Below are positions 2,720 through 64,000 of a stretch of DNA of 64,000 bases, piece after piece; position 1 is the stretch's first letter; every line of letters begins with the position of its first letter. The notes below the pieces were generated by a model. It did no database searches. It worked only from the letters and a program-made list of their open reading frames with translations, and was not told the origin of the DNA. Location: positions 1,813 to 65,812 of the forward strand of contig CAYPIR010000011.1 in assembly GCA_964410905.1 (NCBI GenBank). The letters run 5' to 3'. Source of the DNA: an uncultured bacterium. GTDB taxonomy: Bacteria > Omnitrophota > Omnitrophia > Omnitrophales > Aquincolibacteriaceae. The translations under genes were made by a program, and so were the position numbers.

Positions 2720-3184
2720 ATGAAAATAACAGATTTTCTTAATTTAAAAGCCATTAAAGTTGACTTGGATTCGACGACGAAAGAAGATGTTCTTTCCGAA
2801 ATGGTTGATGCTCTTGCTGAGTCAAAAGATATTGGCGATAAAAAAACTGTTTTGAAGGCTTTGCTTGAGCGTGAAAATTTGGGGTCTACGGGCATTGGCC
2901 AGGGCATTGCAATTCCTCATGGAAAAACAGATAAAGTTGACGGACTTATTGCCGCGCTCGGAGTGAGCAAGAAGGGAGTTAATTTTGAGGCGTTAGACGA
3001 TGAACCGGTCTATATTTTATTTTTACTTGTTGCTCCCAAAGATGCCGCTGGAGCGCATTTGAAGGCTTTGGCGCAAATCTCTAGGCTTTTGCGTGATACA
3101 TATTTTTGTGAACTTATGCGTAAATGTGAAACAGCAAAAGATGTTTTCGATTTGATCGCAAAAGAAGAAAATCGCAAAGCCTAA
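2720..3184 (+). CDS. ptsN: PTS EIIA(Ntr)-type nitrogen regulatory protein PtsN
   Basis: 154 aa. EIIA type-2 fold with the phosphorylatable His in GIAIPHGKTD. Located downstream of hpf, as in rpoN-hpf-ptsN clusters. Confidence 0.8.
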   Translation: MKITDFLNLKAIKVDLDSTTKEDVLSEMVDALAESKDIGDKKTVLKALLERENLGSTGIGQGIAIPHGKTDKVDGLIAALGVSKKGVNFEALDDEPVYILFLLVAPKDAAGAHLKALAQISRLLRDTYFCELMRKCETAKDVFDLIAKEENRKA

Positions 3185-3213
3185 GTCCCAAAATTGTCTA
3201 GGGCAAAATTTAT

Positions 3214-21512: not shown

Positions 21513-21626
21513 CAAATTTGTTCATTGTCATTTCCAGTTAAATCTTTCAGAAATGACGAAGTTTCATCTAACATTTTCTGTGATTCTTTCACACAATTAA
21601 TCAAACGCGAGAGAGTATTATTGTCG

Positions 21627-26500: not shown

Positions 26501-28276
26501 CATCTCAGCGGTTCGTCAGTTTCATATGATGGCGGTATCACTTATGCTGATATTCGTTATGCGGATGCTAGCGGGAACAGACAAAATTATTATAACGGCG
26601 GTGCGATCCCGAAAGACCCGGACACGCTTCAACACGCGTATTTAATCCGTGGTGCGTCTCAGCCCATTCGAGATCTTGAACTTTCTGGATATTTGCAAGG
26701 CGTTGAAAACGGATTTTCCAGCAACTTCAATATAGGTCAAGAAGGAACGCAGAAATATGGAGTTTCGGCACGTTATAAATTTACAGATAATTTTTCAATG
26801 CGTTACCGTTTTGATCGTGAAGACGTAATTGAAACGCTTCTTTCGGGCGGAAACGGTGTTTACGCGCCGTATCAAAATCGCGGCGTTCACACCGCGCAAG
26901 CGGTTTATGACAACGGTAAATATTTAGCCGCGCTTGAATACGCTAAAACAAACGCGTATGACGGTCAGGAGTCTCAATATCTTTTGCCGACAATAGACAA
27001 TCAAATTTCTTTTGACAACGGACTTGCCGCGAAGCTGGGTTATCATATAAACGACAAACTGCTTCCTTATATTAAGGCTCAAACGGTTTATGAAAGCAAA
27101 AGCAACCATCAATTTGGCGCGGGCGTGCGCTATCAAGTTTTAAATGATTTGTACGCGTATATTGAGCAGATGTATGGGAATTACGGAGATTCAACTTATT
27201 TTGGTTTTGAACGACAGCACAAAAACGGAGTCCGAAGTTACGCGAATATCCGCTCAATAGATAGGGGCATTGGCGATAAAGTTATCGGCACGGCGATCGG
27301 GAATTCGTTTTCGCTTACTCAAAACTCACGTGTTTATTCCGAACGTCAATATTCATCATATACCGGAAAAGACGCTTACGCGGATATTTTGGGATATGAA
27401 GGGAAAGCGGGGGATAATTGGGATTATGGAGCAAAGTTTGAACGCAGACGGCTAAATTATAAAGGGGATTGGATTTTAAGCCAGGCCGCGGCGGAATCCT
27501 TGGCGCGCGCGAATACATTTAATACCTTGGGCGGAAATTTGGGTTATGCACGGGGCAAAAAATTTCGCGCACGGACTTATTGGGAAATTCGTCACGATAA
27601 AGAGTCGCCGTCATTAGCGCAAATCGTAACGAGAAACTCCGTTAAATATCAATTTAACGAAGAATGGTCATGGCTTTCATATATGAATTATGGCGTGTCT
27701 GATCAATATGGAGAGGCCTCTGATTCCGCGAAATTTTTGGAATGGAATACAGGATTTGCGTATCGTCCGATTTATTGCGACAAATTGAATATGTTGGGCC
27801 GCTATACTTATACGCGTGATTTTGCTCCTGAGCAGCAATGGAAAAGTTCTTATTACAATGGCTATGGAACGGACGAGTCGGCGCATATTTTATCTTTTGA
27901 TATTGCTTATGATATAAGTAAATATTTTGGATTGGCCCAAAAATTTGCATTTAAGCAATCGCGTCTTTTTACCTCATATGGCGATACTGTCGCGGCGAAC
28001 ACGTTCTTGACTGCCACACGAGTAAATTTTCATGTAACCCGCAAATGGGATTTCGCAGTGGAGTATAGAATTTTGGGACAAAGTTACGCGCAAGAAACAT
28101 TGCGGCAGGGGGTCGTTGTTGAGCTTGACCGCGAAATTTATGAGTATGTTCGGCTTGGGATCGGCTACAATTTCACTGATTTTAGCGATGATTTGCGTTA
28201 TGACCAGGGCGATGTCCGCACAACTGACAACCTTCGTTCCAACGGCTTTTTTGTTCGCATGACAGGCAAGTTTTAA
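23543..28276 (+). CDS. Giant (1577 aa) secreted outer-membrane protein: signal peptide, CBM4/9-like jelly-roll module, SdrD-B/Cna-B-like beta-sandwich repeat(s), very large C-terminal beta-barrel-like domain
   Basis: Signal peptide (FMIASSFVFVPAQPKAYA). Residues ~40-215 have the CBM_4_9 pattern (W..GE....S...L.....G.....W...V.A..GDYV.SGWAK......F.AP.G.AR....L......YFDDF). GKVFNDFNENTVQDCGEMGVPFVSL..TDEYGRYHL.NVNPG is SdrD-B-like. The last ~900 aa are Y/G/N/D-rich alternating strands ending ..FFVRMTGKF. Confidence 0.6.
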   Translation: MSIQSNNKKFGLKFIANVVAFFMIASSFVFVPAQPKAYAATEFGNLNFEQPLGDGMNGTWSNGEPQKTYAKYDITTAEKHSGSSSLRLQAYYKAGSPPDYESTYTWQAVDASAGDYVSVSGWAKSTVGSGDAGAFVQIKFENASGQNLCGGPGYCVQTPKITSGTYTNWKAFPVISYTAPEGTARVVIVLKTDGVSGGSPSYGTTYFDDFIVNVTRNGLSVTASKQRVSVGDAVGVNGTFTNGSGAPLNDVFVHIDMPSGFDFADKTVRVNGKQAMSQTLGDMPNDTTYTSSIVLLVTSGVRIGHRYKIPVWVEDAVGNVLGRAYIYFDIEADPVFDKGTIIGKVFNDFNENTVQDCGEMGVPFVSLYTEEGIGIVTDEYGRYHLPNVNPGRHIVKIDGHSLPEGTKFVTEEAKLVKTTRGMIQKANFAILLPPSGIPEEFAQDLQVMVTQGVDVFQPTLDVSINQDVLKLGVGVFEKEPVFTFDNNYGKYIKKWSLEIRDSFGELVWIGYGVGQPPAEVSWAGTAENGMLVTPGIYSYQLKVRDEQYNEDWTTLKFFEVMTKNDPKASGNYHPEIPSIGDFNLFKDGKRSISLNAKPVVRVQGTTKLGNQITINDTPVMVEEESGMFQKEFFVTPGTHDIKISTTNQDGETTSFTKSVTVKDSSLFMVALAEQQFGLNHNHGSMEAVEGDEFRNGFRQDGRVAFFLKGKIKGKFLIKAKYDTEGEDENYFTNLNPNDYYPIYGDNSTRDYETLSTTQKLYILVEMDKAYVKWGSYETEFTDTELASHNRTLSGLKINYDSVETTVYGDSKRGFKLYSAESETLSDHNELYATGGSLFYTRNRRIAMGSEKIRVEVRDKIQNMTIASYDLQASTDYEINYEEGRILLSRPLSSVAAADTLISNDILDGAPVYLIVDYEYEPAGQAYKALTNQGLRGYVWMGDHIRVGGTAIQEKRADADYQLRGVDALFKIGRNTKITAEYAQSLSHLSGSSVSYDGGITYADIRYADASGNRQNYYNGGAIPKDPDTLQHAYLIRGASQPIRDLELSGYLQGVENGFSSNFNIGQEGTQKYGVSARYKFTDNFSMRYRFDREDVIETLLSGGNGVYAPYQNRGVHTAQAVYDNGKYLAALEYAKTNAYDGQESQYLLPTIDNQISFDNGLAAKLGYHINDKLLPYIKAQTVYESKSNHQFGAGVRYQVLNDLYAYIEQMYGNYGDSTYFGFERQHKNGVRSYANIRSIDRGIGDKVIGTAIGNSFSLTQNSRVYSERQYSSYTGKDAYADILGYEGKAGDNWDYGAKFERRRLNYKGDWILSQAAAESLARANTFNTLGGNLGYARGKKFRARTYWEIRHDKESPSLAQIVTRNSVKYQFNEEWSWLSYMNYGVSDQYGEASDSAKFLEWNTGFAYRPIYCDKLNMLGRYTYTRDFAPEQQWKSSYYNGYGTDESAHILSFDIAYDISKYFGLAQKFAFKQSRLFTSYGDTVAANTFLTATRVNFHVTRKWDFAVEYRILGQSYAQETLRQGVVVELDREIYEYVRLGIGYNFTDFSDDLRYDQGDVRTTDNLRSNGFFVRMTGKF

Positions 28277-49582: not shown

Positions 49583-49774
49583 TTTATCCGGTGGCCGAGA
49601 TTCTCGCGGACAATGTTGAAAAAATGGCAAGAATTGACTATAGAAGGCTTTTGGACGTATTCCGGGGGCTTAAGTCTCCGAAGTCATCAGAAAGCGGTAA
49701 AGTTTCTTGAAAAATGACCGAAACAGTGTAGTATTCACGCAGTTTTTTAAAACAAAAACAAGGGAGATTAGACG

Positions 49775-51073
49775 ATGAAAACACTAGCGAAAGCAATAAG
49801 TGTTATTTGCCTCGGATTGTTTCTTGTTCCCGGCATCACACTTGCTGAAACCAGTGAGGTTGCAGATCTTAAAGCTCAAATCGACAAATTAACCCGCAAA
49901 CTTGAGGCTATGGATTCCAAAGTTGCTTCGTTGCAAAAAACCGCTTCTGCGGCGCAAGCGACGTACATAACTCCGGATGGCGAACCAGCTTCTATCGTTT
50001 CAACCACTCTTGATGGTGTCCGTATTGGCGGTTATGTCGAAACGCAATACAATGAATATCTTGGCCAAACCGGCTCAACAGGCTCTTATGGAATGGGACG
50101 CAATGGGTTTGACACGGCAGATTCGTTTTCTCTCAATGCCGCCAAGATTTATTTAGAAAAACAAGCTAACCCGGACGGCGGAGCTGGTTTCCGTATTGAT
50201 ATGATTGCCGGCACAAACGCTCGTTTTTACAATGCAGAAGAGAACGACGTGAACAACAAAGGCGACACAGACTTTGCTTTTCAACAAGCATATGTTCAAT
50301 ACATCCAACCGCTTTGCGCTTTCAATGACAGCAAATGGCTTCCGCACTCAATCGAGTTTAAAGCCGGTCGTTTTTATTCTCTTGCTGGATTTGAGGTCTT
50401 AGATGGCCCAGACAACTGGAATATCAGCCGCAACATCATTTTCGGTTATATCCCTGTCGCGCATACTGGTGTTCGCGCAACGTATTCGTTGTTCAATGAT
50501 TTCTTAACCGTTACGCATGGCGTGAATAATGGTTGGAATATCAATGTTGACAACAATCGTTTCAAGACAATTGAAAACGCAGTCAGTTTCAAGCCGACCA
50601 AAAACACAACATGGACAACAGCTACTTATTTTGGGCCTGAAACTGCAGGTAAGGATGACAATAAACGTTTCCTTATCACGAATGTTTATCAATGGGATGT
50701 TACTGAGAAATTGTCCTTAGTCGGAGAATTTGATATTGGCAACCAAAACTATAATCGCTATGGTGTCGCTGGTGAAACTGACACACGCCACAGCGCTCAA
50801 TGGTATAGTGTTGTTGGTGCTGCGCGTTATCAAATTAATGACAAATGGGCAGCTGCCTATCGTGCTGAACTTTTCAACGATAGTGATCATTATATGGCAA
50901 CTCAAGCTGGAGATGCTCGCCGTATTATTTCTAACACGGCAACAATCGAATATAAGCCATATGAGAACGTTATCGCACGTGCGGAATATCGTCTTGATCA
51001 CGCAACAAATAAAGACTTGGAAGGCAAGAGAAATCAGAGCACAATCGCAGGACAACTTATTTATCTCTTCTAA
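49775..51073 (+). CDS. Outer-membrane beta-barrel porin (Porin O/P-like) with N-terminal coiled-coil segment
   Basis: Signal peptide (..FLVPGITLA). The heptad-like AEVADLKAQIDKLTRKLEAMDSKVASLQK is followed by GVRIGGYVETQYNEY and alternating amphipathic strands. C-terminal ..AGQLIYLF has a terminal aromatic residue. SD AAGGGAG. Confidence 0.5.
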   Translation: MKTLAKAISVICLGLFLVPGITLAETSEVADLKAQIDKLTRKLEAMDSKVASLQKTASAAQATYITPDGEPASIVSTTLDGVRIGGYVETQYNEYLGQTGSTGSYGMGRNGFDTADSFSLNAAKIYLEKQANPDGGAGFRIDMIAGTNARFYNAEENDVNNKGDTDFAFQQAYVQYIQPLCAFNDSKWLPHSIEFKAGRFYSLAGFEVLDGPDNWNISRNIIFGYIPVAHTGVRATYSLFNDFLTVTHGVNNGWNINVDNNRFKTIENAVSFKPTKNTTWTTATYFGPETAGKDDNKRFLITNVYQWDVTEKLSLVGEFDIGNQNYNRYGVAGETDTRHSAQWYSVVGAARYQINDKWAAAYRAELFNDSDHYMATQAGDARRIISNTATIEYKPYENVIARAEYRLDHATNKDLEGKRNQSTIAGQLIYLF

Positions 51074-51445: not shown

Positions 51446-51606
51446 ATGTACAAGAAGGGCAAAGCTTAGTCTACTAATAATCGATAAAAATCTATTTTGG
51501 GCAGATTATTAGTAAATAATCAATTAAAAATTATATTTTTTTCATTTCGCGAGCGATAAATTTAAACATTATTTTTAATGAACCCGTTTCGCGAGAGGAG
51601 AAAAAT

Positions 51607-54600
51607 ATGAAAAAAACATTTTTATTTATAAGGTTAATAGCCGGACTTACCGCTCTAATTTTCTCTTCTGAACAAATAATTTTGGCAAACGGTTCGCTGC
51701 CGTCTTCCGTTTATACTATTTCTAGCAAATCTCCTACTGTTGATTCGACACAAGAGTTGTCTGCAACATTTAACTCGCAAATAAATGACGCAACGACAGA
51801 TTTTTTTGTGACACAAAACTCTCCATTATCAATGTCCGACACTCCGCAAAATGTTTATGGTGAAAACGGAGAGCTGCGGACAGAATCTTTAATCAACAGC
51901 AAAACAATACACCACGTTTATCAAGGCGAGTCCATTCAAAACGCAATAGAAGGAGCGAAGGCGGGAGATACGATTTTTATTCACGTCGGAATTTACAAAG
52001 AGAACTTAGAACTCAAAAATGGAGTTTCAATAAAAGGAGAAGATGCAAACGCGACAATCTTGAACGGTGAAAACAAAACAGGAACACAAATTATACGCGC
52101 GCTTGGCAACAATAGAATTGAAGACATAACCGTTACGGGCGGAGGCGCGTATTCTGGAACGCCTTCAAGCGCTATCAAAGTGGATGGCGACAAGGTTCAA
52201 ATACGAAACAGCATTTTTTCTGACAATAAAGATTACGGGATTTTTGCGGCCTTTGATGGCCACCTGTTAATAGAAGGAAATATTTTTATAAATACACATA
52301 TTGGAGTGCAGCTCCCAAAAGATAAAACACAAATCCGTTATAACACTTTTTACGAATGCGATATCGGCGTAAATGTTTTAAACGGGACAACGCCCGAGAT
52401 TGCGAACAATATTTTTTATGGCAGCAAGAATTCGTCAATTTATGAATTTAATTGGGCAAGTTACGCAAAAGGCGAGGCGAGCCGCGGATTTTTAACGGCA
52501 ATAAATAATACTTTTTGGGCTAACAAAGAAAAACCGAGCGCTTACGGCAGCGCGATGCCTTTTATGGTTGAGCAACAGGCTGAAGGAAATATAAAAGAAA
52601 ACCCGCAATTTTTTGATGCCAGCAACGGAGACTTTAGAAATTTGGAGAGAGAGCGTGGAGCGATTTTGCCGGAAGCGTTAAAAAGGGCGCTTACTCGCGC
52701 GAGTTTGTTTTCTTATGAGGTGAAGATAGAAAATATTTTGGATGAAGGCGCTGTAACCGGATACAAAACGCTTTATAACGACGGCTCGATAGAGAAGTTT
52801 TACAATGACGGACGAGACATTTTGGATACTACGCCGCCGGAGATAAATATAGCCGATGAAATTTGGACGAATCAAACGAGCGGGGAAATTACATATGAAG
52901 TTGATGGCGTTTTGCGAACTCTGGCATTTGAATTTTTTGGGGAGACGGCAAGCATTACTATAGAAGAAACGGATATTTTGGGAAATAAAGCGGCTAAGAC
53001 GATTTTGCTAAAACAAGATTTGATTTTGCCTACGGGAACATTACAGATTGAAAATTTTGTCGGGAAAGCAAATACGCGAGAAGCAGTTATTACAGTCAAC
53101 GCTCAAGACAACGCGGCGCTTAAAGATTTAAGGTTTTCGGCAGACGGAGGAATAACTTGGACGGAATGGACAAGCTGCGGAGTAAAAAAAGGTTTGGATA
53201 TAAATATAGATACGACAGAAATTTTATGTCAGCTGCGAGATCGCGCGGGGAATATAACAACTCTTAGCGCTAACATTCTGAAAGGCGATTTTGCATCGAC
53301 AATCAATTTTATTTCGTCAAATATAACGAATGATGAAAACTATATTTTGCGTTACACAATAGACGGCGAACTTCACGAAGAACATTGGAAATTGAACAGC
53401 GGAGAAAATCGTTTAATTGTTTCTATCGCGCAAGGCGGCTTGGCTGAATATGCCGATTTTGTTGTAACACTCAATGCACCAAGCGATTCGTTTAAAGATA
53501 TACCGCAACCGCTCGGAACAATTCCTAACGACTTAATTTCATACACCGCCGAAGACGGCTCGCTTGTCAGTTACTCGCAAGGGAAACTTTTTTCTATAGA
53601 AATGACGGGTGATTATTGCTTTTATTCGCCGGAGTTTGATGATGACGGAGAACTTGTAAATGGAATAGTTGAATTCGCGAACGGCAGCAGGATTTGTTAT
53701 GAAAATGGGAATGTTATAAGACGTATTGATTCCGATGGCGCGAAGTCCATTTATGACGGCGATAATCATATTGTCAAAAAAATATCTGAAAACGGCGAAG
53801 AAGTTTCTTTTGCGTATAGATTTGACGAGGCGGAAAATGTGTCGGGAATTTTATCTACGAGTAATGGAGCGAGTAATTTTTATGACGAAAATGGTGAAGC
53901 AGTTTGGATAAAAAGGGCGGATAACTCCGAGTGGTTTTATCAAAACGGGCGACCGTATATTTATCAAGATTCATTCGGAAATAAATATAAATATGAAACG
54001 GCGGTTAGCAGAGACGGAATGGACATAACAGGATTTAAAACAAGTCTTACTTATGTTTTGCCGAGCGGACAAGAAACTTGGATTTTGTATTCTGATGTCG
54101 CGGCAAGTTATGACGAATTTGCCGAGATAAAAAATGTTTTTAACGCCGGGCTTCCTAAGGAAATAACTTATGAGTCCGGTGGCGAAGTAAAAGAAATCGT
54201 CTCAACTTCCGGAGCTTTGGTCAATCTTGAAAATGGAATGCTTACTGGTGTTGATGCCGGAGGAAACCAAACTTATACATTTGACGTTGACCGCTTGGGA
54301 AATAATGAAAACTATTTTGTAGTAACGCAAGACGGCGGAGATTTTTCTCAAAAATTTAATGAGAGAGGTGAATTGATAGAAATACAAATGGCGGGCGGAG
54401 AGTCTCTGAAAATTAAGGAATTAAAACTTGACCAAATAATTTTTGAGAATGGGGAATTTTTAAGCGACCTCACGCGGGATGAAAATAACCTTATCGGATT
54501 TGTTTACAATCATTTAGACGGAAGCCGTGATTTTTATCAAGACGGGAAAATAATTAAGCGTGAAGATGCGGACGGTGTTATAACGCGATATGTGTCAGAT

Positions 54601-57600
54601 GCTGCGGCGGCGTTTCCTGAAAGCGTTCTGCTTCCGGACGGCAGAGAATATATTTTAAGCGAGACTATAAATTTAAACGGTGAAATTGAACGGCTTATGA
54701 CGCTTGCGTCTGTTTCGCTTGCGGGAGGTGAACAACTGCAATTCCAAAACGGGAACGCGGCTTGGCTTTCCGCTGTAAAAATAATTTCTTTGAATCCGCA
54801 AGATATTCCAAGTCTTTTGGACAATCAATTCTTTGTCCCTTCAATCAAACTTACAAAAGCTGAACTAAAAAATTTAACAGTTGATGAAAATGGGGATATT
54901 TTTTCCGGCGAAATTTTATTTAGCGACGGGACGCAGTTTTTTATTGAGGAAGGAAAAATTATAAAACAAGCAACGGCGGACGGACATTTAATAGAGCTTG
55001 AAAACACCGCTTTAGAAAATACTCAGCAACAAAAAGAAATATTGGCTGAACCGCTTACGGCGAAAGAATTAGAGTTTCGCAATCAAATTATTGACGCGCA
55101 GCTTGATTATTTTACAGACGGAATTGGAATAGACGCGGCAACGGGTTTGCCGGTCGATTCTTTCGCGATTTCTGCAGGTGAACAGTCGACTTATTCACAA
55201 TCCACGCTCGTTGGGTTTTGGGCAGAAATACTCGCGGCAATCGCCAGAGGAGATTTTCCCACTCAAAAATTATCTCAAGACGAGGCTTTTTCAAAACTAA
55301 ATCAATTGCTTCAAACTTACAAGGAAGCGCAGCGGGACGCGGGCTGGAAAGGAATATTGTCGTTTTTTTCTCGCGGGACAGCCACGAAAGAAATTTTGGA
55401 TGAAGAAACCAATGAGCCGACAGGCGAAATTATTACGACTTATTATTGGAAAAATGAATTTGATCAAGCAGGGCTTGGAGACGCGCTTAATCTCGCGATG
55501 AGTCTCGCGAGCGTTATTGGCGCGTTCGGAAATTTTGATGTCGCGCCGGAGTTTAATAATCAAAAAGATCAGATTTTATCAACCGCACGCGAAATTTTGT
55601 TGGCGCAGGAAGAAGGCTTCTCGGCATTTTACGATGCGGAAAACGACAGATTCTATGGTTCCGTAAAGCTCAATCAAGCGACAGGGAAGTGGGAATTTGA
55701 AAATTATGTGATGGACAGAGTTTTCAATGAGTTTAGATCGGGGCTTATTTATCTTGCCACGAAATATCCACAATACGCTAGCTCCGTTAAAAAATTAGAA
55801 GTGGCGCGGAGTGAATATGAACTTCAAAACGGAGAAAAAATTAATATTGCTCTTACCTATGACGGCGGTGCGTTTCAGATGTTTTGGCCGCTCATTCACG
55901 TGGATGAAACAAAATATCCTCAATTTGATGTCGCGATAAAAAACTTTTTATACGCGCAAGCAGACTTTGCCGCCCACGAAAACATCGCGGGTCTTTTATC
56001 CGCCGGAGCAAATGCTCTTTCCGAATATGAAAGTAAATCAGGGGTTCAAAATACGGCTGAAACCGATGAACGGCTTTTTTCGGATGCCGGTTCGCTTTAC
56101 GGAACCGCGGCTGCGTTCGGCGCGGCTCCGCATTACACGCTTCAATTCCTTAAAAATCTCATAGAGCAATTTCCAGAAATAATGACTTCAGCCGGCTTTG
56201 TGGATTCAATCGGGTTTAAAACCGTATTAAACGAAGATGAACAAACCGGCGAAATTTTTGAGACAACAGAGACGGTGTTTTCTGATAGCTTTTTCGGAGT
56301 AAACCAAGCCGCATTTTTGCTTTCACTTTTAAAAATAGGGCAAACATATTTTAGTAATTATTTGAAAAATGAAGGATTGGAAACGGAGTTTGATACTTTG
56401 TATCAATCTTTCAAATGGGATCTGTCGCCGGTTACTGAAAGCAATTCTACGCCGCCTTTTGGCACGGAGCCGGCAGATTTGCTTTATCAAGGCGATAGCG
56501 AATTTCCGGACGGCAAATTATCGGGGTTAGTTAAACAGCCTTCTTTTATCGCTTCTATTCAAGACACTGATCTTGGTAAAGGGAAAGTCTATAACTATTT
56601 AACGAATGACGGAAGTTTTCATCACTCGGAAATAGAGTTTGGCTCCGACAAAAACATTCTAAAAATGAATTTACAAGAATATTTTTTATCACCGTCGCAT
56701 TCCGGAGTTGCTACATCCATTTTGGACGGGATAGATTTGAATATACTTGATTCATCTATACAAAAAGGAGTTTTTTATACGCCGGGAAATGGCGCCGCCG
56801 GACTTGTTGTGGCAAACGATTCAAAAATCGGAGCGGTAACCAGAATGCCTTTCGATTTTAAAAATGTGGAATATCCCGTCGGCATTTGGGCGAATTTTAA
56901 TGAACGGGATTTTTCCGGTTATGACTTTTTCTCCGTCCCTGTCCGAGTTGATTCCGCGAATGCCGGAAAAGTTAGATTGAAATTCGAGTTCAAAGGAATG
57001 GGCGAAATTTTTATCTCGGATTTTCTCGATACCGATTGGAATTATTTATCACTGCCTATTCCAAAATCCTTTAGCAATTTATCGCAGCTTGCGATTTCTA
57101 TTCAAACGCTTGATGGGGAAGCCGCTTCCGGCGATGTGCTTTTAGGCCCAATATCTGCAATAAAAATTAGAACATCTAACGATATTAATTGGCAAGTGCT
57201 TTTGGGGAAAACTGAATCAGAAATTAAAAATCTTGTATTGCGGGCACTCGTAGAAAATAAAGAACCTGAAACGCAAATAGAGGCGCGTGATATTTTGCGT
57301 AATTTTTCTTTGGACGATAACGGAAGAGTTGTAAACGGTATTTTGGAACTTGCGACGGGCGATAAACAGTATTTTCAAAACGGGCGACTCGTGAAATGGA
57401 TTTTTGCAGATGGGAAAACGATCCTTTTTGAAAATGGGCTTGCAAGTTTTATATTGGATTTGTCGCGCGGCAAGCTTGAGACGGGCAGGTTTTATTACGA
57501 GAGAAATTTCAAAGGAGATATACAGTCTTTTGTTTTGCGCGACAATGATTCTGAACGCGTATTTTCTTTGTCGGGAGAAATGGTTTCTTATTTTAGAGAA

Positions 57601-60600
57601 GGAGTCCGCGCGTTTTATGAAAACGGAGAGATGAAATTCATAAAAACTTCCACGGCGGAATTGAACGATTTAGAGTTTTCTTCTGAAGGAGAACTTTTGA
57701 GCGCTCGCGTTACGCTTTCTGACGGACGCGAATTCGATTTGGATAAGGAGGGAGTTCAAACTCTTTATCTTGATAACGGGGCGACGGTTTTTGTTAAAGA
57801 CGGAAGGACCATAGCGATTGAAACACCACAAAATGGCAGAATTAATCTTACGTATAGGCTGGACGCGCTTGGGCGAATGTTCGGCGTTGATGTTTCGTTT
57901 TTTGAAACAGTTCAAGGTGAAGAAATTTTGAGAGAAATGGATTTGTTTGATTATCTTAATTTGGCGGGAAGAGAAATCGAACGAAACATAATTTTTGACG
58001 AAGCGGTTTGCGTTTTGGATTCTGCCATTGCCGGAGGTTTTAGCGTTGGTCAGCTTAAGCAAGGAGAAATTACCACGGCCGTGAAAAATTCTAGCTCAAA
58101 TGAAGTTGCTTACACTTATAGGTACGCGGAGGCAAGCGGAACAACCTTGGGAGCGGTTGTTAAGCCTACCAGAGAAAATACTCGTTTTGAAGATTATGAT
58201 TTTTTCACATTAAACGTTAGAGAAAATCCAAATTTTTTAGGTGCGGATAACTTTTACCTAAAACTTAAAACCACGAATATGCAGACGCGGTTTTCTGGAG
58301 ATATTCAGGGCGTTAGTGTTGATGAAAAACTTTTTGGATTTTCTTTGCAAGGGATAACGGGCGATTTTGGAGAAATGACATTAGAAGTCATACGCGATGA
58401 AAACTTTATTGGACAAACGCAAGGCGTTTATTTAAACGATATTAAGTTTCTTAATTTGAGGAAATTTGATGAAATTCTCGAAATGCAAATTGGGGCGGAC
58501 GCGGAAATTTTTCAAAGGCTTAAAACGAAAGGAGATAAACTTGTTTTCATAGGAGAAAAAATAGCGGCGTATTCGCCATTTGTGCTTGATGGTGCGGTTG
58601 AGTTTTTAAATATGCCGACTCAAATGACTTACAAAGGAACGAAAGCGGATTTGGGACGCGTGGAAGCGTTTGAGCGTTTCGATGGAAGCAGAGTAGAGCT
58701 AAATGAACAAAATGAAGTTTCCCGCGTAATTCTCTCGGATGGAAGCGTTCATGAATTTGAAGTGTCGGGAAATTTTACCGTAGGACATATTTCCGGCATT
58801 GACCAAGCGGCCGGTACAACTAATGAACTTAGCTATAGATACGGAATGCTAAAAAAAATTATTAGCGCGGACGGGAGGGAAATTAATTTGTCGTATGAAT
58901 ACGACTCGGACGGAAAAAAGATAACAGTTTTTACGGACGCGGCGAGCGGCGAGGAGCAAAAGTTTAAAGACGGAAAAATCATATCAACCGATGCCTCAAC
59001 GGATTTGAAAACGCAATATGAGTATGTTAACGGAGTTTTGAGCGGCGCGCGGCTTACTTATAACGGAAGAACGCTTAGTGAGACTCAATATGAATTTGCC
59101 GGTGATGAAACGCGGATTACGGACGAAGAAGGAACAATATGGTTTTATGACGCGGCGGGAGAACTCACAAAACATATTACGACAGGCGGGTTTTTGTATG
59201 AATATTCTGGGCATACGCAAGAAGCCGAAGACGGCGGTGAAATCTCTGATGACTATAAGAAGGAACTTTATGAGAGTGAAAATCTTCGGGAAGTTAGGCT
59301 TAACGGATATGAAGCAAAAGACGGTTCGTGGATTAAATATGATTTTTCAAATGGCGCGGAAATACGTCTCGCTTCAGGCATTCAAGCGTTCAATGTGGAA
59401 TTTGACAGTGAACAAAAAATGAAAAGCGGTCAGCTGCTTTTCCCCGATGAAATGATTCTTGAAATAGAAAATTATGTTCCTGTCCGCGGCAGACTCCCAA
59501 GCGGAGAGATTTTTGATTGTGAAATTCCGCTGGGTGAGTCGTATGAATTAATTCAAGACGAGAAGGGAAACTATGATGGATTTTCTATCGCCCAAGACGG
59601 CATTAAATGGACTTATAACGCATTTGGAGAATTGATTAAGACGGAATCTGAAGACGGCGAGACTAATACTTTTACTTATGTCCGAAACGCCTCAGGCGAA
59701 ATTACGGATGTTATTAGGAAAGAACGCAAGCAAGCGGACTTTAACGGCGTGCCGTTTCCTAAGGAAATAATTTTAGAAACGACCGGCGGGCAGAGGCTTT
59801 TTGACACGGGTGAATTGGCGGCATCGCACGATGGAGATGGTTTTTTAGCCGCGATTTATAAGGAAGCGACAAATCAATGGGAAGTTTATACGGGAACATT
59901 TAACTCTGAGGCGAACCGCGCTGGACTTAATTATTTTTTATCAAGCATAAAGACGGGCGAGTATTTTGTAATGGCGGTGTCTGACCCGAATTTTTATAAG
60001 GCAGATGAGGAGACAAAAAGTTTACTGGAGGGTTTGGGCGCGGGAAATGTCCGCGAAATCGCTTCGCAAAATATGTCTTGGAGTTTTATAGGCAACGAAA
60101 GTTTGTCTATTGGTGAAGGCATAGAATCCGTAAAAAAACTTTCTAGCACTTACGAAACCACGGTTACTGAGAAAATCATAACTAGCCAAAAGTTTTTGTT
60201 TTATAAAAAAACTACATATAAATATGTAACTTACACAAAGCAAGTTCCCGCTGAATTTCTTGAAGCGGATGAATTGTCCACGATTACCGAAAGTATTCAC
60301 GAGGAATTAATAGATGTGGAAGCAAAATCCAGTTGGGAAGGCGGACAAATGTTTTTAAATATGCTTTCCGCGGTTCATCGAGCCTATTCCGATTTTCTTA
60401 TTCAAAGCGAAAGTTTAAAGATAGCAAGCGACTTGCAAATTCTTGTTGTTTATAACGAAAAAAATGAAATGGTTTTTTCCCGCCGCATGGACGGGATAAG
60501 TTCTTTTTATGAAAATGGAAATGTCCGCGAAACTTTTTCCGCAGAAGGCGAGCTTTTAAGCGTTCACGAATATGAACAAAACTCGGACGGCGAATGGATT

Positions 60601-63600
60601 GTGAGCAAAATTACGCTTGTAAAAGTCAGACAAGATTTTGAAGAAGAGTCCGCGAGACTTCTCAATCAAATAGAACAGGCAAAATATGACGCGCTTCTTC
60701 AACTGGTTTGGCAGGACGATGTCGCCAGACTTGAAATAAATGAAAATGTTACGGCGGGGCTTGCGGCGTATGACGCGCATATCGCGTATTTAAACAGTCA
60801 ACTATTTAGAACGGTAAAACAATGCAAAAAAATAGTTTTTGTTACGCATTGTGAAAAGCATACCTATGAAGTCCCAGGCGTTCGAGAAATGATTTATACC
60901 GCGCAAAACGAACGAAGAAATTTGCTCGTAACGGGCGAGGAAGAACTCGCGAAAATTCCCGGCGCGATTGCTGACAAAAAAATAGAAATTGAGCAGGCAA
61001 CGCTTGAGAAAATCACGGAGCTTGAGACGCAAAAACAAGAATTTCTTTTAGATATTTTGCGCAAGGAAATGGAACCCGTAATCACGGATATTTATCGCCG
61101 CGTTTTAGGACGCGATGTTTCTAAAGAAGAATTTGAAGAATGGATTTTGCGTTATAAAGAAACGGGGGCAGTAAATGTGGAGGAAGTTTATCAAACTCTG
61201 AATGATTCTGATGAAAAGATAGTTAAGCAAAATCAAAAAAATATGATTATCCGCTCGGTCCGTGATTTCTTGGAAGATTATCTCGAGGCTGACGCGGCGG
61301 AACGTGAAACTCTTTTGGAAGAATTGAATCTTACAAAAGATGAGACGGTTGCGCTTGATAGCGAAGAAGTAGATTTGATTTTGGGATGGCTTAATACGCG
61401 TGATTTGCACTTTGGACAATCGGCGTTTTTATCATTACAGGAAATGCTGGCCTCGGAAGGTGTGGAAACATCGCTTGAAACGCTTGGAATACAGACAATC
61501 CTTATTGATATTTTGACAGGCGTTATTCACAGATTTTCCGCGGGCGAGCTTGTCATTTCAATGTTCGCGCTTGAGCGGACCGCGCAAATTTACGCTAAAC
61601 AATTCGCTGTCGTCCGCTATGACTTTCAAGACCTTTTGGATTTGTATAAAGAAGCTTGTCCGGATCAAGAAACGGAATGCGGATTTCGTGTTATCGCCCA
61701 TATTGCCGGCGATCACTTTGTTGTGATTAAACGCGTAACGGAAACCGAAGTTGTAATGGTTGAAACAAACAAGGGCGAGGACGGAGAAGTGTCTATCGCG
61801 CGACGTGATGAGTTTATGAAACGCTGGTTAGACGGCGAAGGCTCGGGACATTTGCTTGTGTCCGATTCAAAGGCCGTTCAGACAAAAAAATTAACAAATG
61901 AGCAATCAAGAAAAATACGCGGAGCGTTTTTCCCTCTTATTATTGTATGGGCGTTTTGGGCATCGGTAGCGCTTAGCGTCGCGAGCGTGATTGTCGCGCC
62001 ATTTAGTCCAACGTTTGGAAAAATATTAGGTTATGCCGCGCTTGTCGCAAGCGTTATCAGCATTGTTGCAAGCGTGGGGAATTTTATAGTTCAAGGCGTA
62101 AAATCAATATTTACTCAAATCGCGGCTAACGGAATCATTTCTACCCTTAAGGCTGGGATTTCGCAAATAGGAGGCATTATTGTTTCAGGCGTTAAAGCGG
62201 TCGGGCGATTTTTTTCTAACGCGTGGACATTTACAAAAGATGCTTTTACGGGCGGACTTAAGGCTCTCGGCTCCGGGTTAATGAAAATCAAAAATTATGC
62301 GGCGGCAAATGTAGGAGGACTTGCCACCAAAGAAGGCTTGTTGAAGGCAATATCCAATAATTTAGTTTTGGCGTCAATCAATTGGAATGTTTCAAACGGC
62401 TTAGAGATTTTAGGCTTAGATTCACGACTGACTAGAATTATTTCTAGCGCTGTCGGCGCTGCTTATGGCGGCGCTATGGGAGTTGGCTTAAGCGTAAATA
62501 CGACGCAAGAGGCGATGGCGGAATTTTGGAAGTCGGGCATATCGGCGTTCGCGCTGCAGGGCGTAAACGAAATCTCGCGGCATTTAGATTTGCCGCCTCC
62601 GCTTCTGTCTATAGTAGAAACCGTGGGCAGTGTCACGTTGGAATTTTTTAACACGGAATTAACTTTAGACGAAGGCTTTAAAAAAATATTACCAGACGTC
62701 GTGAATGGTGCAACCGCCTGGGGCATAGACTTCTTAGGAGAATCTCTCGAACTTGATTCTCGCATTACAAAACTTCTTGGGCTTTCTGTTACATCGCTTG
62801 CAGGCGGGCTTGTGGCGGATTATCTAAATCCGAAACGGGATATATCGTTTGACTTAGATTCGATTTGGGAGCGCGTAAAAGACGCATTTCTTTCAAAAGA
62901 AAGTCTCGGCGGGACGCTTTCCATCTCGGCTGAAGTCGTTATTGATAAATTTGAGCTTGATGAGTCTTTGTGGAAGTCGGGAGTTGCCCGCATTGTGGCG
63001 GGAATGTTTAATGATTTTTTAAGCGATACGCCGGCGAAATTTGACTTTATAAAAAGCATTGGCAAATCTGTGGACGAATCCATTGATGACTTTTTGAACA
63101 AAGACAACCTGGTCAATCTTTTAGAAGCAATAGATAAATTGGGATTTTCCGAGGGAATAGAAAAATACGCGACATTTCTATTTACACAAGGAGCTTTGCA
63201 GGAAATGACCAAGGGCGGTGAAACTATAGCGTATTTAATTGAGCATGGAATTTTCCGCAACGCGAGTTTCTGGATTGACGGCAAATTGAAAAATGTGTTG
63301 ATGGTGGAAGCTAATGGAAAAACTGTAATGATTACTTATGAAGCTCATGGAGATAAAAAAACCATAACGGGAATTTATGAAGAAAATGAAGACGGTTCGT
63401 ATCAGTATGTTTCTTGGGAAGTAGATGAAAATGGAGAAATTACGAATATTAAGGTCATTAAAAAGGACAGTTCCGGCGGAATAAAAACCGAAGAAGATTT
63501 AAAAACAGGAAATTTCAAAATTACTTTCGAGGATTTTAACGGTAATGAATATGGCGAAATTTTCTATGATAAAGAATCGGGCAAAATTGGATTTTCAAAT

Positions 63601-64000
63601 CAGGACGCGGGAATTACTTCGAGTCTTAACGCCGGCGGGAAAATCGAAATCGATTTTGCTATTCTGCCGGACATGGAGGACATAAAAGGATTTCTTGAAA
63701 ACTACAATCAAAATATGACCAAAGATTCCGCCGCTCAAATTGTGGCATTTTCTGTCGGGCAAGGATTTTGGAATTCGCTTGGAAGTTATGACCAAGTTTC
63801 GGATTTGATGTCGCATTTTAGGCAAGCGGTTAAAGAAGATAAAATAAAATTTGGGGCGGCGGGAATTGTTTTGTTTGATGAAAATGGAAATATCGCTTAT
63901 GACAAAAACGGTGAAGTTTTGACTACGGCCGCGCTTCCTGTAACGCTTTATGAGGAGACAACTCTTTTCGGGAATTCTATAAGATGGATCGCGGAAACTT
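51607..64000 (+). CDS. Giant secreted multidomain protein (>4130 aa, 3' end beyond window): signal peptide, parallel beta-helix, YD-repeat block 1, (alpha/alpha)6 glucoamylase-like domain, YD-repeat block 2, C39-like peptidase-like module, glycine-zipper TM segment
   Basis: ATG 51607 sits 7 nt after GAGAGGAG. Frame 1 stays open to the window end: no stop seen on manual codon reading, and the ORF track lists no frame-1 ORFs after 51093. Signal peptide MKKTFLFIRLIAGLTALIFS. PbH1-like repeats (NGVSIKGEDANATILNGEN..ITVTGG..IRNSIFSDNKDYGIF..IEGNIFINTHIGV.., ~51920-52460). YD repeats (FYDENGEAVWIKRADNSEWFYQNGRPYIYQD; SYRYGMLKKIISADGREINLSYEYDSDGKKITVF; FYDAAGELTK). Alpha-helical domain at ~55150-56350 (GFWAEILAAIARGDF, YDGGAFQMFWPLIHVDE, AAFGAAPHYTLQFLKN). 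C39-like block ..QEML.SEG.. to ECGFRVIAHIAGDHFVVIKRV (~61400-61880). Hydrophobic glycine-zipper helices (FFPLIIVWAFWASVALSVASVIVAP, GAAYGGAMGVGLSV; ~61905-62560). Confidence 0.8.
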   Translation, partial: MKKTFLFIRLIAGLTALIFSSEQIILANGSLPSSVYTISSKSPTVDSTQELSATFNSQINDATTDFFVTQNSPLSMSDTPQNVYGENGELRTESLINSKTIHHVYQGESIQNAIEGAKAGDTIFIHVGIYKENLELKNGVSIKGEDANATILNGENKTGTQIIRALGNNRIEDITVTGGGAYSGTPSSAIKVDGDKVQIRNSIFSDNKDYGIFAAFDGHLLIEGNIFINTHIGVQLPKDKTQIRYNTFYECDIGVNVLNGTTPEIANNIFYGSKNSSIYEFNWASYAKGEASRGFLTAINNTFWANKEKPSAYGSAMPFMVEQQAEGNIKENPQFFDASNGDFRNLERERGAILPEALKRALTRASLFSYEVKIENILDEGAVTGYKTLYNDGSIEKFYNDGRDILDTTPPEINIADEIWTNQTSGEITYEVDGVLRTLAFEFFGETASITIEETDILGNKAAKTILLKQDLILPTGTLQIENFVGKANTREAVITVNAQDNAALKDLRFSADGGITWTEWTSCGVKKGLDINIDTTEILCQLRDRAGNITTLSANILKGDFASTINFISSNITNDENYILRYTIDGELHEEHWKLNSGENRLIVSIAQGGLAEYADFVVTLNAPSDSFKDIPQPLGTIPNDLISYTAEDGSLVSYSQGKLFSIEMTGDYCFYSPEFDDDGELVNGIVEFANGSRICYENGNVIRRIDSDGAKSIYDGDNHIVKKISENGEEVSFAYRFDEAENVSGILSTSNGASNFYDENGEAVWIKRADNSEWFYQNGRPYIYQDSFGNKYKYETAVSRDGMDITGFKTSLTYVLPSGQETWILYSDVAASYDEFAEIKNVFNAGLPKEITYESGGEVKEIVSTSGALVNLENGMLTGVDAGGNQTYTFDVDRLGNNENYFVVTQDGGDFSQKFNERGELIEIQMAGGESLKIKELKLDQIIFENGEFLSDLTRDENNLIGFVYNHLDGSRDFYQDGKIIKREDADGVITRYVSDAAAAFPESVLLPDGREYILSETINLNGEIERLMTLASVSLAGGEQLQFQNGNAAWLSAVKIISLNPQDIPSLLDNQFFVPSIKLTKAELKNLTVDENGDIFSGEILFSDGTQFFIEEGKIIKQATADGHLIELENTALENTQQQKEILAEPLTAKELEFRNQIIDAQLDYFTDGIGIDAATGLPVDSFAISAGEQSTYSQSTLVGFWAEILAAIARGDFPTQKLSQDEAFSKLNQLLQTYKEAQRDAGWKGILSFFSRGTATKEILDEETNEPTGEIITTYYWKNEFDQAGLGDALNLAMSLASVIGAFGNFDVAPEFNNQKDQILSTAREILLAQEEGFSAFYDAENDRFYGSVKLNQATGKWEFENYVMDRVFNEFRSGLIYLATKYPQYASSVKKLEVARSEYELQNGEKINIALTYDGGAFQMFWPLIHVDETKYPQFDVAIKNFLYAQADFAAHENIAGLLSAGANALSEYESKSGVQNTAETDERLFSDAGSLYGTAAAFGAAPHYTLQFLKNLIEQFPEIMTSAGFVDSIGFKTVLNEDEQTGEIFETTETVFSDSFFGVNQAAFLLSLLKIGQTYFSNYLKNEGLETEFDTLYQSFKWDLSPVTESNSTPPFGTEPADLLYQGDSEFPDGKLSGLVKQPSFIASIQDTDLGKGKVYNYLTNDGSFHHSEIEFGSDKNILKMNLQEYFLSPSHSGVATSILDGIDLNILDSSIQKGVFYTPGNGAAGLVVANDSKIGAVTRMPFDFKNVEYPVGIWANFNERDFSGYDFFSVPVRVDSANAGKVRLKFEFKGMGEIFISDFLDTDWNYLSLPIPKSFSNLSQLAISIQTLDGEAASGDVLLGPISAIKIRTSNDINWQVLLGKTESEIKNLVLRALVENKEPETQIEARDILRNFSLDDNGRVVNGILELATGDKQYFQNGRLVKWIFADGKTILFENGLASFILDLSRGKLETGRFYYERNFKGDIQSFVLRDNDSERVFSLSGEMVSYFREGVRAFYENGEMKFIKTSTAELNDLEFSSEGELLSARVTLSDGREFDLDKEGVQTLYLDNGATVFVKDGRTIAIETPQNGRINLTYRLDALGRMFGVDVSFFETVQGEEILREMDLFDYLNLAGREIERNIIFDEAVCVLDSAIAGGFSVGQLKQGEITTAVKNSSSNEVAYTYRYAEASGTTLGAVVKPTRENTRFEDYDFFTLNVRENPNFLGADNFYLKLKTTNMQTRFSGDIQGVSVDEKLFGFSLQGITGDFGEMTLEVIRDENFIGQTQGVYLNDIKFLNLRKFDEILEMQIGADAEIFQRLKTKGDKLVFIGEKIAAYSPFVLDGAVEFLNMPTQMTYKGTKADLGRVEAFERFDGSRVELNEQNEVSRVILSDGSVHEFEVSGNFTVGHISGIDQAAGTTNELSYRYGMLKKIISADGREINLSYEYDSDGKKITVFTDAASGEEQKFKDGKIISTDASTDLKTQYEYVNGVLSGARLTYNGRTLSETQYEFAGDETRITDEEGTIWFYDAAGELTKHITTGGFLYEYSGHTQEAEDGGEISDDYKKELYESENLREVRLNGYEAKDGSWIKYDFSNGAEIRLASGIQAFNVEFDSEQKMKSGQLLFPDEMILEIENYVPVRGRLPSGEIFDCEIPLGESYELIQDEKGNYDGFSIAQDGIKWTYNAFGELIKTESEDGETNTFTYVRNASGEITDVIRKERKQADFNGVPFPKEIILETTGGQRLFDTGELAASHDGDGFLAAIYKEATNQWEVYTGTFNSEANRAGLNYFLSSIKTGEYFVMAVSDPNFYKADEETKSLLEGLGAGNVREIASQNMSWSFIGNESLSIGEGIESVKKLSSTYETTVTEKIITSQKFLFYKKTTYKYVTYTKQVPAEFLEADELSTITESIHEELIDVEAKSSWEGGQMFLNMLSAVHRAYSDFLIQSESLKIASDLQILVVYNEKNEMVFSRRMDGISSFYENGNVRETFSAEGELLSVHEYEQNSDGEWIVSKITLVKVRQDFEEESARLLNQIEQAKYDALLQLVWQDDVARLEINENVTAGLAAYDAHIAYLNSQLFRTVKQCKKIVFVTHCEKHTYEVPGVREMIYTAQNERRNLLVTGEEELAKIPGAIADKKIEIEQATLEKITELETQKQEFLLDILRKEMEPVITDIYRRVLGRDVSKEEFEEWILRYKETGAVNVEEVYQTLNDSDEKIVKQNQKNMIIRSVRDFLEDYLEADAAERETLLEELNLTKDETVALDSEEVDLILGWLNTRDLHFGQSAFLSLQEMLASEGVETSLETLGIQTILIDILTGVIHRFSAGELVISMFALERTAQIYAKQFAVVRYDFQDLLDLYKEACPDQETECGFRVIAHIAGDHFVVIKRVTETEVVMVETNKGEDGEVSIARRDEFMKRWLDGEGSGHLLVSDSKAVQTKKLTNEQSRKIRGAFFPLIIVWAFWASVALSVASVIVAPFSPTFGKILGYAALVASVISIVASVGNFIVQGVKSIFTQIAANGIISTLKAGISQIGGIIVSGVKAVGRFFSNAWTFTKDAFTGGLKALGSGLMKIKNYAAANVGGLATKEGLLKAISNNLVLASINWNVSNGLEILGLDSRLTRIISSAVGAAYGGAMGVGLSVNTTQEAMAEFWKSGISAFALQGVNEISRHLDLPPPLLSIVETVGSVTLEFFNTELTLDEGFKKILPDVVNGATAWGIDFLGESLELDSRITKLLGLSVTSLAGGLVADYLNPKRDISFDLDSIWERVKDAFLSKESLGGTLSISAEVVIDKFELDESLWKSGVARIVAGMFNDFLSDTPAKFDFIKSIGKSVDESIDDFLNKDNLVNLLEAIDKLGFSEGIEKYATFLFTQGALQEMTKGGETIAYLIEHGIFRNASFWIDGKLKNVLMVEANGKTVMITYEAHGDKKTITGIYEENEDGSYQYVSWEVDENGEITNIKVIKKDSSGGIKTEEDLKTGNFKITFEDFNGNEYGEIFYDKESGKIGFSNQDAGITSSLNAGGKIEIDFAILPDMEDIKGFLENYNQNMTKDSAAQIVAFSVGQGFWNSLGSYDQVSDLMSHFRQAVKEDKIKFGAAGIVLFDENGNIAYDKNGEVLTTAALPVTLYEETTLFGNSIRWIAET

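Follow-up and report, generated by a model that had tools for sequence, protein, structure and literature searches.

A C39-fold domain with serine at the nucleophile position, followed by a leader-like motif at the first membrane helix, as a candidate processing module of giant Omnitrophota proteins

We analyzed a stretch of 64,000 nucleotides (the window; positions 1,813 to 65,812 of contig CAYPIR010000011.1, assembly GCA_964410905.1) from an uncultured Omnitrophota bacterium, focusing on a region near its 3' end that lies within a giant open reading frame (ORF). Three elements follow one another there: a C39-fold peptidase-like domain with serine in place of the catalytic cysteine, a motif resembling the double-glycine leaders that C39 peptidases cut, and a pair of membrane helices. 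With a probability of about one half, we propose that this region serves as a built-in processing module, cutting a giant, Sec-exported, membrane-anchored Omnitrophota surface protein from its anchor. A first-pass annotation of the same DNA, made from the letters alone, had read it as a possibly degenerate C39-like domain next to a toxin-like membrane-insertion segment in a Sec-secreted YD-repeat protein, suggestive of a processed, translocating effector.

The giant ORF (51607..63999, + strand) belongs to a stretch of frame +1 that has no stop codon between nt 51520 and the window end and encloses every string quoted in the first-pass annotation. It starts with a Met codon at nt 51607, residue i beginning at nt 51607 + 3(i − 1), and encodes, within the window, aa 1-4131 of a 4,334-residue protein: the translation is 100% identical across 4,131 aa to database protein P0003 (4,334 aa), of which the final 203 aa lie beyond the window. 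Three reverse-strand ORFs (61105-61419, 62463-62765, and 62820-63284) were set aside as incidental because the forward frame is backed by hundreds of homologs.

Profile comparisons and structural modeling indicate that the segment at aa 3250-3420 (nt 61354..61866, + strand) is a true C39 (double-glycine peptidase) fold. The case became firm only when family sequences were added, since a single sequence is too weak. The segment alone scored 22.6 bits against Pfam PF03412 (cutoff 22; E 1e-4), covering only the His-box half of the model, and the score fell to 16.9 bits when the whole protein was scanned. A phmmer search of the Protein Data Bank (PDB) with the segment alone found no match, one with a single Cys-type domain from the same family returned nothing relevant, and a three-sequence profile reached only E 0.22. 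No relevant NCBIfam model was found for the giant protein. Relatives scored 33-43 bits against PF03412, with every match to this model spanning only its C-terminal two thirds. A 40-sequence family profile searched against the PDB matched the C39 domain of PCAT1 at E 5e-9, and an hhalign comparison of 130 family domains with seven canonical PCAT peptidase domains, drawn from plasmid bacteriocin loci, gave Prob 98.2% and E 6e-14. An AlphaFold2 (AF2) model built from the 40-sequence alignment had a predicted local distance difference test score (pLDDT) of 92.5 and a predicted template-modeling score (pTM) of 0.88; a first run with three sequences had a pLDDT of 61 and was discarded. When the model was submitted to Foldseek, 13 of the 15 top PDB matches were double-glycine C39 peptidases, with LahT150, ComA (ComA-PEP), and PCAT1 at prob 1.0 and a TM-score of ∼0.7 normalized to the target. 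The C39-family similarity proposed in the first-pass annotation is thus borne out. ABC transporter domains were sought in the giant protein with Pfam and NCBIfam, and none were found; two membrane helices follow the C39-like domain.

The hhalign alignment begins exactly at Ser3272 (61420..61422, + strand), the S of GQSA in the motif LHFGQSA, which stands opposite the Cys of the canonical DCG motif; the surrounding block, GQSAFLSLQEMLASEG, begins at nt 61414. In the AF2 model, the N-terminal end of helix 26-38 carries Ser3272, and serine rather than Cys occupies the N-terminus of helix alpha-1, the canonical place of the catalytic residue. His3370 (61714..61716, + strand; HFVV, within AHIAGDHFVVIKRV) pairs with His99 of PCAT1 and with the His of the canonical domains. 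Glu3386 (61762..61764, + strand), 16 residues further on, is aligned to the Asp of the PCAT1 motif ADPGKG both in the PCAT1 profile matches and by hhalign, and its distance from His3370 equals the His101/Asp117 spacing of 16 in LahT150 (PMC6363468). The model has His3370 opening one strand and Glu3386 closing the next. The Cys-box and His-box assignments made from the sequence at first sight therefore agree with the alignment, which puts Ser3272 on Cys, His3370 on His, and Glu3386 on Asp. It had also been remarked that the Cys in ECGF is off the canonical position, and this was correct; about half of the relatives have a gap in the variable loop to which it belongs.

Conservation at these positions was assessed in the 130 aligned family domains, which average ∼35% identity. 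The nucleophile column holds Ser in 123 and Cys in seven, the histidine is invariant (130/130), and the acid is Asp in 66 and Glu in 62 (128/130 together). The acid was counted by alignment, because a regular expression (regex) at the fixed +16 spacing undercounts it owing to loop insertions. Since the triad is conserved and Ser and Cys interchange at a single column, the family pattern resembles an exchange of the nucleophile more than decay. The label "degenerate, non-catalytic" given earlier to the domain is hence not the sole reading of a column with 95% Ser and 5% Cys beside an invariant His and a conserved acid, and perhaps not the best one. Two further features mark the family. Compared with canonical C39 domains, the family has 13 inserted columns (hhalign), which contain ILIDILTG (61498..61521, + strand), with Asp3301 in 127/130 and Gly3305 in 130/130 relatives, and a conserved histidine, His3268, lies at −4 from the nucleophile, where Cys-type members have Asn.

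The strongest clue to the function of the module is the leader-like motif KKLTNEQSRKIRGA (aa 3427-3440, nt 61885..61926, + strand). It begins ∼10 residues past the end of the C39 fold, and the first membrane helix comes directly after its G-A. The predicted scissile bond, Ala3440-Phe3441, falls at nt 61926-61927, and the sequence around it reads KLTNEQSRKIRGA/FFPL, with the slash at the bond; a genuine leader encoded beside a PCAT gene reads KLTAKEMSQVVGG/KYYGNG. Double-glycine leaders end in GG, GA, or GS and have the consensus L(−12)-x3-E(−8)-L(−7), and their residues V−4, L−7, and L−12 occupy hydrophobic pockets of the peptidase (PMC6363468). The motif of the window largely follows these rules, with L−12, T−11, Q−8, I−4, G−2, and A−1, and the family as a whole follows the pattern L-[ST]-x-x-[EQ]-x-x-x-[IV]-[RK]-G-[AS]. 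In the family logo, position −12 is L or I (120/130), −11 is S or T, −8 is E or Q, and −7 is A or T; the C-terminal half has I or V at −4 (always hydrophobic), R or K at −3, G at −2, and A or S at −1. The glycine at −2 was present in all non-gapped sequences of an unbiased family alignment.

A strict regex for the motif matched the 4,334-aa protein once, at 3429-3440, with ∼0.19 matches expected anywhere in a shuffled copy. Across 150 retrieved proteins, 91 of the 126 matches fell within the 4.5% of residues just behind the C39-like domain, a 55-fold enrichment, and several of the remaining matches are the ...RGA form of the family in proteins whose domain match was split in two. At 87 of the 130 leader-like sites the sequence runs directly into a hydrophobic segment. 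The AF2 model makes motif residues −10 to −5 helical, with a block-mean pLDDT of 97 for model residues 181-190 (motif −15 to −6).

The membrane segment behind the motif is best read as a hairpin of two helices, after which comes an amphipathic, glycine-rich stretch. Helix 1, around FFPLIIVWAFWASVALSVASVIVAPF (aa 3443-3467, nt 61933..62007, + strand), has a Kyte-Doolittle value of 2.32 (19-residue mean) and a Hessa-type sum of −0.9; helix 2, with Ala/Ser in small-xxx-small spacing (aa 3474-3497, nt 62026..62097, + strand), has values of 2.21 and +1.0. Elsewhere in the giant protein the Kyte-Doolittle mean stays at or below 1.6, including a peak of 1.57 in the signal-like segment at the N-terminus. 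The corresponding Hessa-type sums are +4.0 for the signal-like segment, +4.9 for a Gly-zipper stretch at 3611-3629, and above +6 for all other segments. Averaged over 68 relatives, hydropathy shows the same two helices and no further one, with extra peaks in some individual relatives. The first-pass annotation was right that membrane helices directly follow the C39-like fold in a giant, signal-peptide-bearing protein. It had counted four over 220 aa; two of them stand, and the rest of nt 61900-62560 is amphipathic and glycine rich and does not span the membrane by these measures, so the hydropathy of the protein and of its 68 relatives led us to drop a four-helix bundle.

The glycine-rich amphipathic region (aa 3498-3660, nt 62098..62586, + strand, delimited by hydropathy) includes AVGAAYGGAMGVGLS (nt 62443-62499) and had no Pfam match. 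A glycine zipper had been claimed here, and a GxxxGxxxG pattern does occur, at aa 3617-3629 in the GAAYGGAMGVGLSV stretch; the hydrophobicity of the segment, though, is marginal (+4.9 on the Hessa-type scale, ∼1.0 on the Kyte-Doolittle scale), and the actual transmembrane helices have Ala/Ser spacing. Overlapping the end of this region and extending beyond it, the 68-sequence alignment brought out repeated G-L-E-x-L-G-L-D-S/P-x-L motifs (aa 3598-3612 and 3706-3726; nt 62398..62784, + strand), which a regex search of the post-membrane region recovered as LGLDSRL at 3602 and LELDSRI at 3714.

The protein begins with a signal-peptide-like segment, MKKTFLFIRLIAGLTALIFSSEQIILA (51607..51687, + strand; hydropathy peak at aa 2-27). 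A basic, hydrophobic N-terminal segment ending in "...Q...A" is common to many full-length relatives. We also noted that in many of them this segment is stereotyped (e.g., MFKRFFLKPIAAVLIFTFSYSQLLYAADVRQMLLD), its conservation exceeding that of ordinary signal peptides; giant proteins of this class may have an export signal of their own. In 57 of 68 relatives, no hydrophobic helix lies between the N-terminal signal-like segment and the C39-like domain. Read simply, this arrangement would place the giant N-terminal part and the C39-like domain outside the cytoplasmic membrane, with the hairpin as anchor and the C-terminal ∼840 residues back outside. The window also encodes BamA, an LpxC-FabZ fusion, and a porin, so the organism has an outer membrane.

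In the proposed mechanism, the leader-like helix would dock into the leader groove of the adjoining C39-like domain, which would bring the bond between G-A and F to the Ser/His/Glu center, and the chain would be cut either in cis or between neighboring copies. The cut would part a ∼3,400-residue ectodomain from an 894-residue C-terminal part; the ectodomain would keep the peptidase domain, with the leader as its new C-terminus, and the C-terminal part would then start at the membrane hairpin. Release could let the cell shed an adhesin or an enzyme scaffold, or it could be a maturation step. The more specific form of this proposal, a serine-nucleophile branch of clan CA/C39 in which a Ser-His-Asp/Glu autoprotease takes its leader in cis and cuts giant Omnitrophota proteins at the membrane anchor, we put forward tentatively and at less than even odds.

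Several points weigh against a cut of this kind. To our knowledge, the nucleophile of every characterized clan CA/C39 peptidase is Cys. Replacing it with Ser usually abolishes activity, and papain-like domains of the Ser type (Plasmodium SERA5, for example) are regarded as non-enzymatic. The Gln at −6 from the nucleophile is absent (Asp3266 here; S, N, or D in the family), position −7 of the motif is Ala or Thr versus the Leu of bacteriocin leaders, and the AF2 block-mean pLDDT is only 70 for model residues 191-200, which include the G-A. Finally, five Lys/Arg residues lie in the flank before helix 1, so that the positive-inside rule would put the domain in the cytoplasm, in conflict with the topology based on the signal peptide. 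On the glutamine, the LahT150 paper itself questions the role of this proposed oxyanion residue (PMC6363468).

In the main rival explanation, the serine C39-like domain is a non-catalytic latch that binds a leader-like helix, its own or a partner's, as a juxtamembrane clamp or chaperone-like tether, much as the C39-like domain of HlyB holds on to its substrate but leaves it uncut. The catalytic Cys is missing from the protein of the window and from 95% of its relatives, the usual oxyanion Gln is missing as well, and a leader that is bound but uncut would account equally well for the conservation of the motif and for the confidence with which the model places it. Non-catalytic C39-like domains that bind substrates are, moreover, established (PMC6363468; bioRxiv 10.1101/2023.11.21.568195). 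What the latch accounts for less easily is the pattern of conservation. Ser, His, and Asp/Glu are all nearly invariant, whereas the C39-like domains of the HlyB type have Tyr at the Cys position and substrates without a GG-type leader. Gly −2 and Ala/Ser −1 are retained without exception; conservation of this small G-[AS] pair fits a catalytic S1/S2 site, and a helix-binding groove would not need such residues. In LahT150, the groove that binds the leader helix lies ∼20 Å from the active site (PMC6363468). Cys-type members of the family also retain the same motif. Weighing both sides, we consider the latch a real but rather unlikely alternative to cleavage by the built-in module.

The Cys-type domains belong to other giant proteins, including one of Candidatus Gorgyraea atricola, where they lie at about residue 450-650 and likewise precede ...IRGA or ...IKGA, but without a membrane helix. 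Because these copies keep ...IRGA without the helix, the conserved unit is the C39 domain plus its own GG-type site. As a separate observation, six Cys-type giant proteins (P0051, P0101, P0126, P0131, P0140, and P0145) have two or more C39 domains. In such multi-copy proteins the ...IRGA motif comes after the first copy (VINCA..., GGDHYVV) and is missing from the second (YVINCA..., GGDHAV), in which Ala follows the His and the sequence ends in ...ERAPP. Their sequences suggest that multi-copy Cys-type proteins split into C39 copies that bear their own site and copies that are site-less.

A further way to use the same center would be acyl transfer of the sortase kind: the Ser/Cys-His center attacks the G-A bond, and an amine or hydroxyl of the envelope or of a prey surface resolves the acyl-enzyme, attaching the ectodomain covalently. 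Papain-like folds do include acyltransferases and amide-forming enzymes, and the amide-forming CtaG was among the lower Foldseek matches; cleavage C-terminal to the domain would also give an intramolecular acyl-enzyme that should be well placed for transfer. Set against this, the nearest relatives in structure and sequence are hydrolytic leader peptidases, and nothing specific points to transfer, which we therefore rate as very improbable.

The module recurs in ∼400 mostly giant proteins, almost all of them from Candidatus Omnitrophota. The word-indexed protein database returned two matches per search, and the family came from an exhaustive search of representative sequences with a small profile, which found 398 proteins at E ≤ 1e-3 and 227 at E ≤ 1e-10, most of them 2,000-7,000 residues long. 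A scan of GTDB genomes with a seven-sequence alignment found 87 relatives, and among the 80 loci kept almost all were labeled as Candidatus Omnitrophota or Omnitrophica, with a few given as "uncultured Planctomycetia" or "uncultured bacterium" metagenome-assembled genomes. The closest named relatives in the word-indexed database, P0001 and P0002, carry the labels Opitutales and Candidatus Azambacteria (a lineage of the candidate phyla radiation). These labels stand on 2-kb contigs and may be binning errors or reflect rare transfer. We also noted a 33.5-kb contig of Candidatus Omnitrophus fodinae (ASOC01000009.1) with two copies of the module ∼15 kb apart (L014, 8537-17136; L021, 24087-32686), which are therefore either neighboring paralogs or two modules in one enormous gene.

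Within the giant proteins, conservation is centered on the module. At the level of BLAST, the conserved block spans aa ∼2900-3800 around it, and the last ∼500 residues are poorly conserved. The distance from the module to the C-terminus is nearly constant among relatives, at ∼885 residues (interquartile range 776-930). The N-terminal part varies in length and content, and few relatives match it outside patches at aa 500-1000, 1900-2100, and 2300-2700. Pfam matches within the N-terminal 3,000 aa include Beta_helix, RHS_repeat, and ILEI. Three RHS_repeat/YD matches lie at aa ∼716, 2499, and 2515; most of the chain is without a domain assignment, and Pfam had no match at aa ∼1000-2400.

This layout bears on a model in line with the first-pass annotation, that a degenerate C39 domain sits beside the glycine-zipper insertion segment of a YD toxin whose C-terminal part enters a prey membrane and delivers an effector. 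A C-terminal fragment produced by the G-A cut would indeed start with a hydrophobic hairpin and continue into the Gly-rich GxxxGxxxG sequence, Omnitrophota have been reported to be predatory or epibiotic, and the order of protease and then hydrophobic region resembles that of large clostridial toxins and MARTX. The motifs HSG... and ...GHND in the last 200 aa could belong to a hydrolase, for which Pfam gave no support. Yet there are only two or three scattered RHS_repeat matches, no Rhs core, and no DPxGL, the broader motif DPxG[LWIV] being absent from all 4,334 aa; polymorphic toxins conserve their N-terminal parts and vary the C-terminal toxin, whereas here the conserved block surrounds the module, the ∼885-aa distance to the C-terminus is retained, and no variable C-terminal toxin was seen. 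Only two clear membrane-spanning helices are present, which suits an anchor, and we found no evidence of a toxin or immunity gene. We accordingly rejected the Rhs/YD-repeat toxin reading as such and regard insertion and delivery as improbable. Of the earlier phrase "processed, translocating YD effector," processing remains plausible as part of the built-in module, and translocation by the giant protein is speculation.

In the part of P0003 beyond the window (aa 4132-4334), HFSHSGNF and GAGHNDY could be the nucleophile and His motifs of a hydrolase; their conservation among relatives is low, and Pfam scans of the 840 aa downstream of the membrane helices and of the last 260 aa had no match, leaving the hydrolase-like motifs without support. 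Further toward the N-terminus, the sequence ITDIYRRVLGRDVSKEEFEEWILRYKETGAVNVEEVYQTLNDSDE (nt 61081-61221, aa ∼3159-3205) is conserved in the Azambacteria-labeled relative P0002 as YDYFRRILGRDPSSQEYADWV. We take it to be similar to the DUF4214 motif (..LGR.p...e..yW...l..G...), although Pfam reported no DUF4214 at E ≤ 0.1. An ILEI/PANDER-like domain (E 7e-7) was matched at nt 59890-60099 (aa 2762-2831) and a right-handed beta-helix (E 1e-9 to 1e-18) at nt 52114-52464 (aa 170-286).

The genes beside the giant ORF in the window include those for BamA, the LpxC-FabZ fusion, an OmpL-like porin, glutamine synthetase III, and a sigma-54 activator. The gene for the OmpL-like beta-barrel porin (BBP2, E 1e-66; nt 49772-51070) is directly upstream of the giant gene, with a gap of ∼500 nt. 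A second large ORF (nt 23522-28273; 1,584 aa) had only weak SdrD_B/FlgD-Ig matches and is preceded and overlapped by a 676-aa ORF (nt 21513-23540) without a Pfam match; together they may form a second surface-protein locus within the window.

Giant proteins are a hallmark of Omnitrophota, which are ultra-small and probably predatory bacteria, and whether and where these proteins are cut is an open question in the field. C39 domains in them, including C-terminal C39-like domains near transmembrane anchors, were reported by West-Roberts et al. (2023; bioRxiv 10.1101/2023.11.21.568195), who independently suggested that the polypeptide is cut by these domains and noted that, for want of known cleavage points, further analysis was blocked. 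According to a 2026 preprint (bioRxiv 10.64898/2026.06.07.730766), a PF03412 group is the largest Pfam-architecture cluster among long Omnitrophota proteins. The proteins of both preprints share with ours the phylum, great length, a signal peptide, C-terminal anchors, and PF03412; in the passages that name C39, it carries the Pfam label only. NCBI likewise annotates some of our relatives as C39 domain proteins, including the Cys-type one of Candidatus Gorgyraea atricola. Given these reports and annotations, the C39 call itself is not new. A literature search of incomplete coverage turned up no description of the serine substitution, of the conserved G-[AS] site in cis, or of the location of that site at the first membrane helix.

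The module gives a precise, conserved candidate cut site, G-[AS] and then the first membrane helix, together with the domain likely to be responsible. If the proposal is true, these would be the first defined cleavage sites for giant Omnitrophota proteins, and the family would present a natural Cys-to-Ser switch in a papain-fold peptidase, perhaps tied to working outside the cytoplasm. An active serine form would amount to a compact self-cleaving tag with known sequence rules; an inactive one would be a peptidase and its substrate fossilized as a structural latch.

Among known systems, the C39 domains of PCAT/AMS transporters (LahT150, ComA-PEP, and PCAT1) are the closest. They are alike in fold, with significant homology, in the spacing of His and acid, and in the position of the nucleophile at its helix, and their leaders follow the same logic as the leader-like motif (L−12, E/Q−8, hydrophobic −4, G−2, and A/S−1). 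The Omnitrophota family differs in having Ser in 95% of members, no Gln at −6, a 13-residue insertion, and no ABC transporter. The leader-like sequence is part of the same chain, on the C-terminal side of the domain, and a membrane hairpin with ∼840 further aa takes the place of the cargo; the predicted location of the domain is outside the cytoplasm, not inside. The C39-like domain of HlyB-type RTX exporters also has the C39 fold without the catalytic Cys and binds its substrate polypeptide; it forms, however, the N-terminal part of an ABC transporter, binds substrates that lack a double-glycine leader, and has no conserved Ser at the nucleophile position, whereas the Omnitrophota family conserves the His, the acid, and the GG-type site.

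Other systems offer analogies only. The Plasmodium SERA proteins have either Ser (SERA5) or Cys (SERA6) as the nucleophile residue of a papain fold within one family; they are eukaryotic and belong to family C1, and the Ser type is regarded as non-enzymatic, which is a caution for a serine C39 family. In MARTX and large clostridial toxins, the C80 protease acts in cis next to a hydrophobic region of a secreted protein of several thousand residues and frees part of the chain; it is a caspase-like enzyme of clan CD, is activated by InsP6, and cuts N-terminal to itself, freeing effectors in the host cell. The GAIN/GPS modules of adhesion GPCRs and polycystin-1 and the SEA modules of mucins are eukaryotic, have unrelated folds, and cut through an N-to-O/S acyl shift, with no protease triad involved, but each is a self-cleaving module placed just before the first membrane helix that leaves an ectodomain and a membrane fragment.

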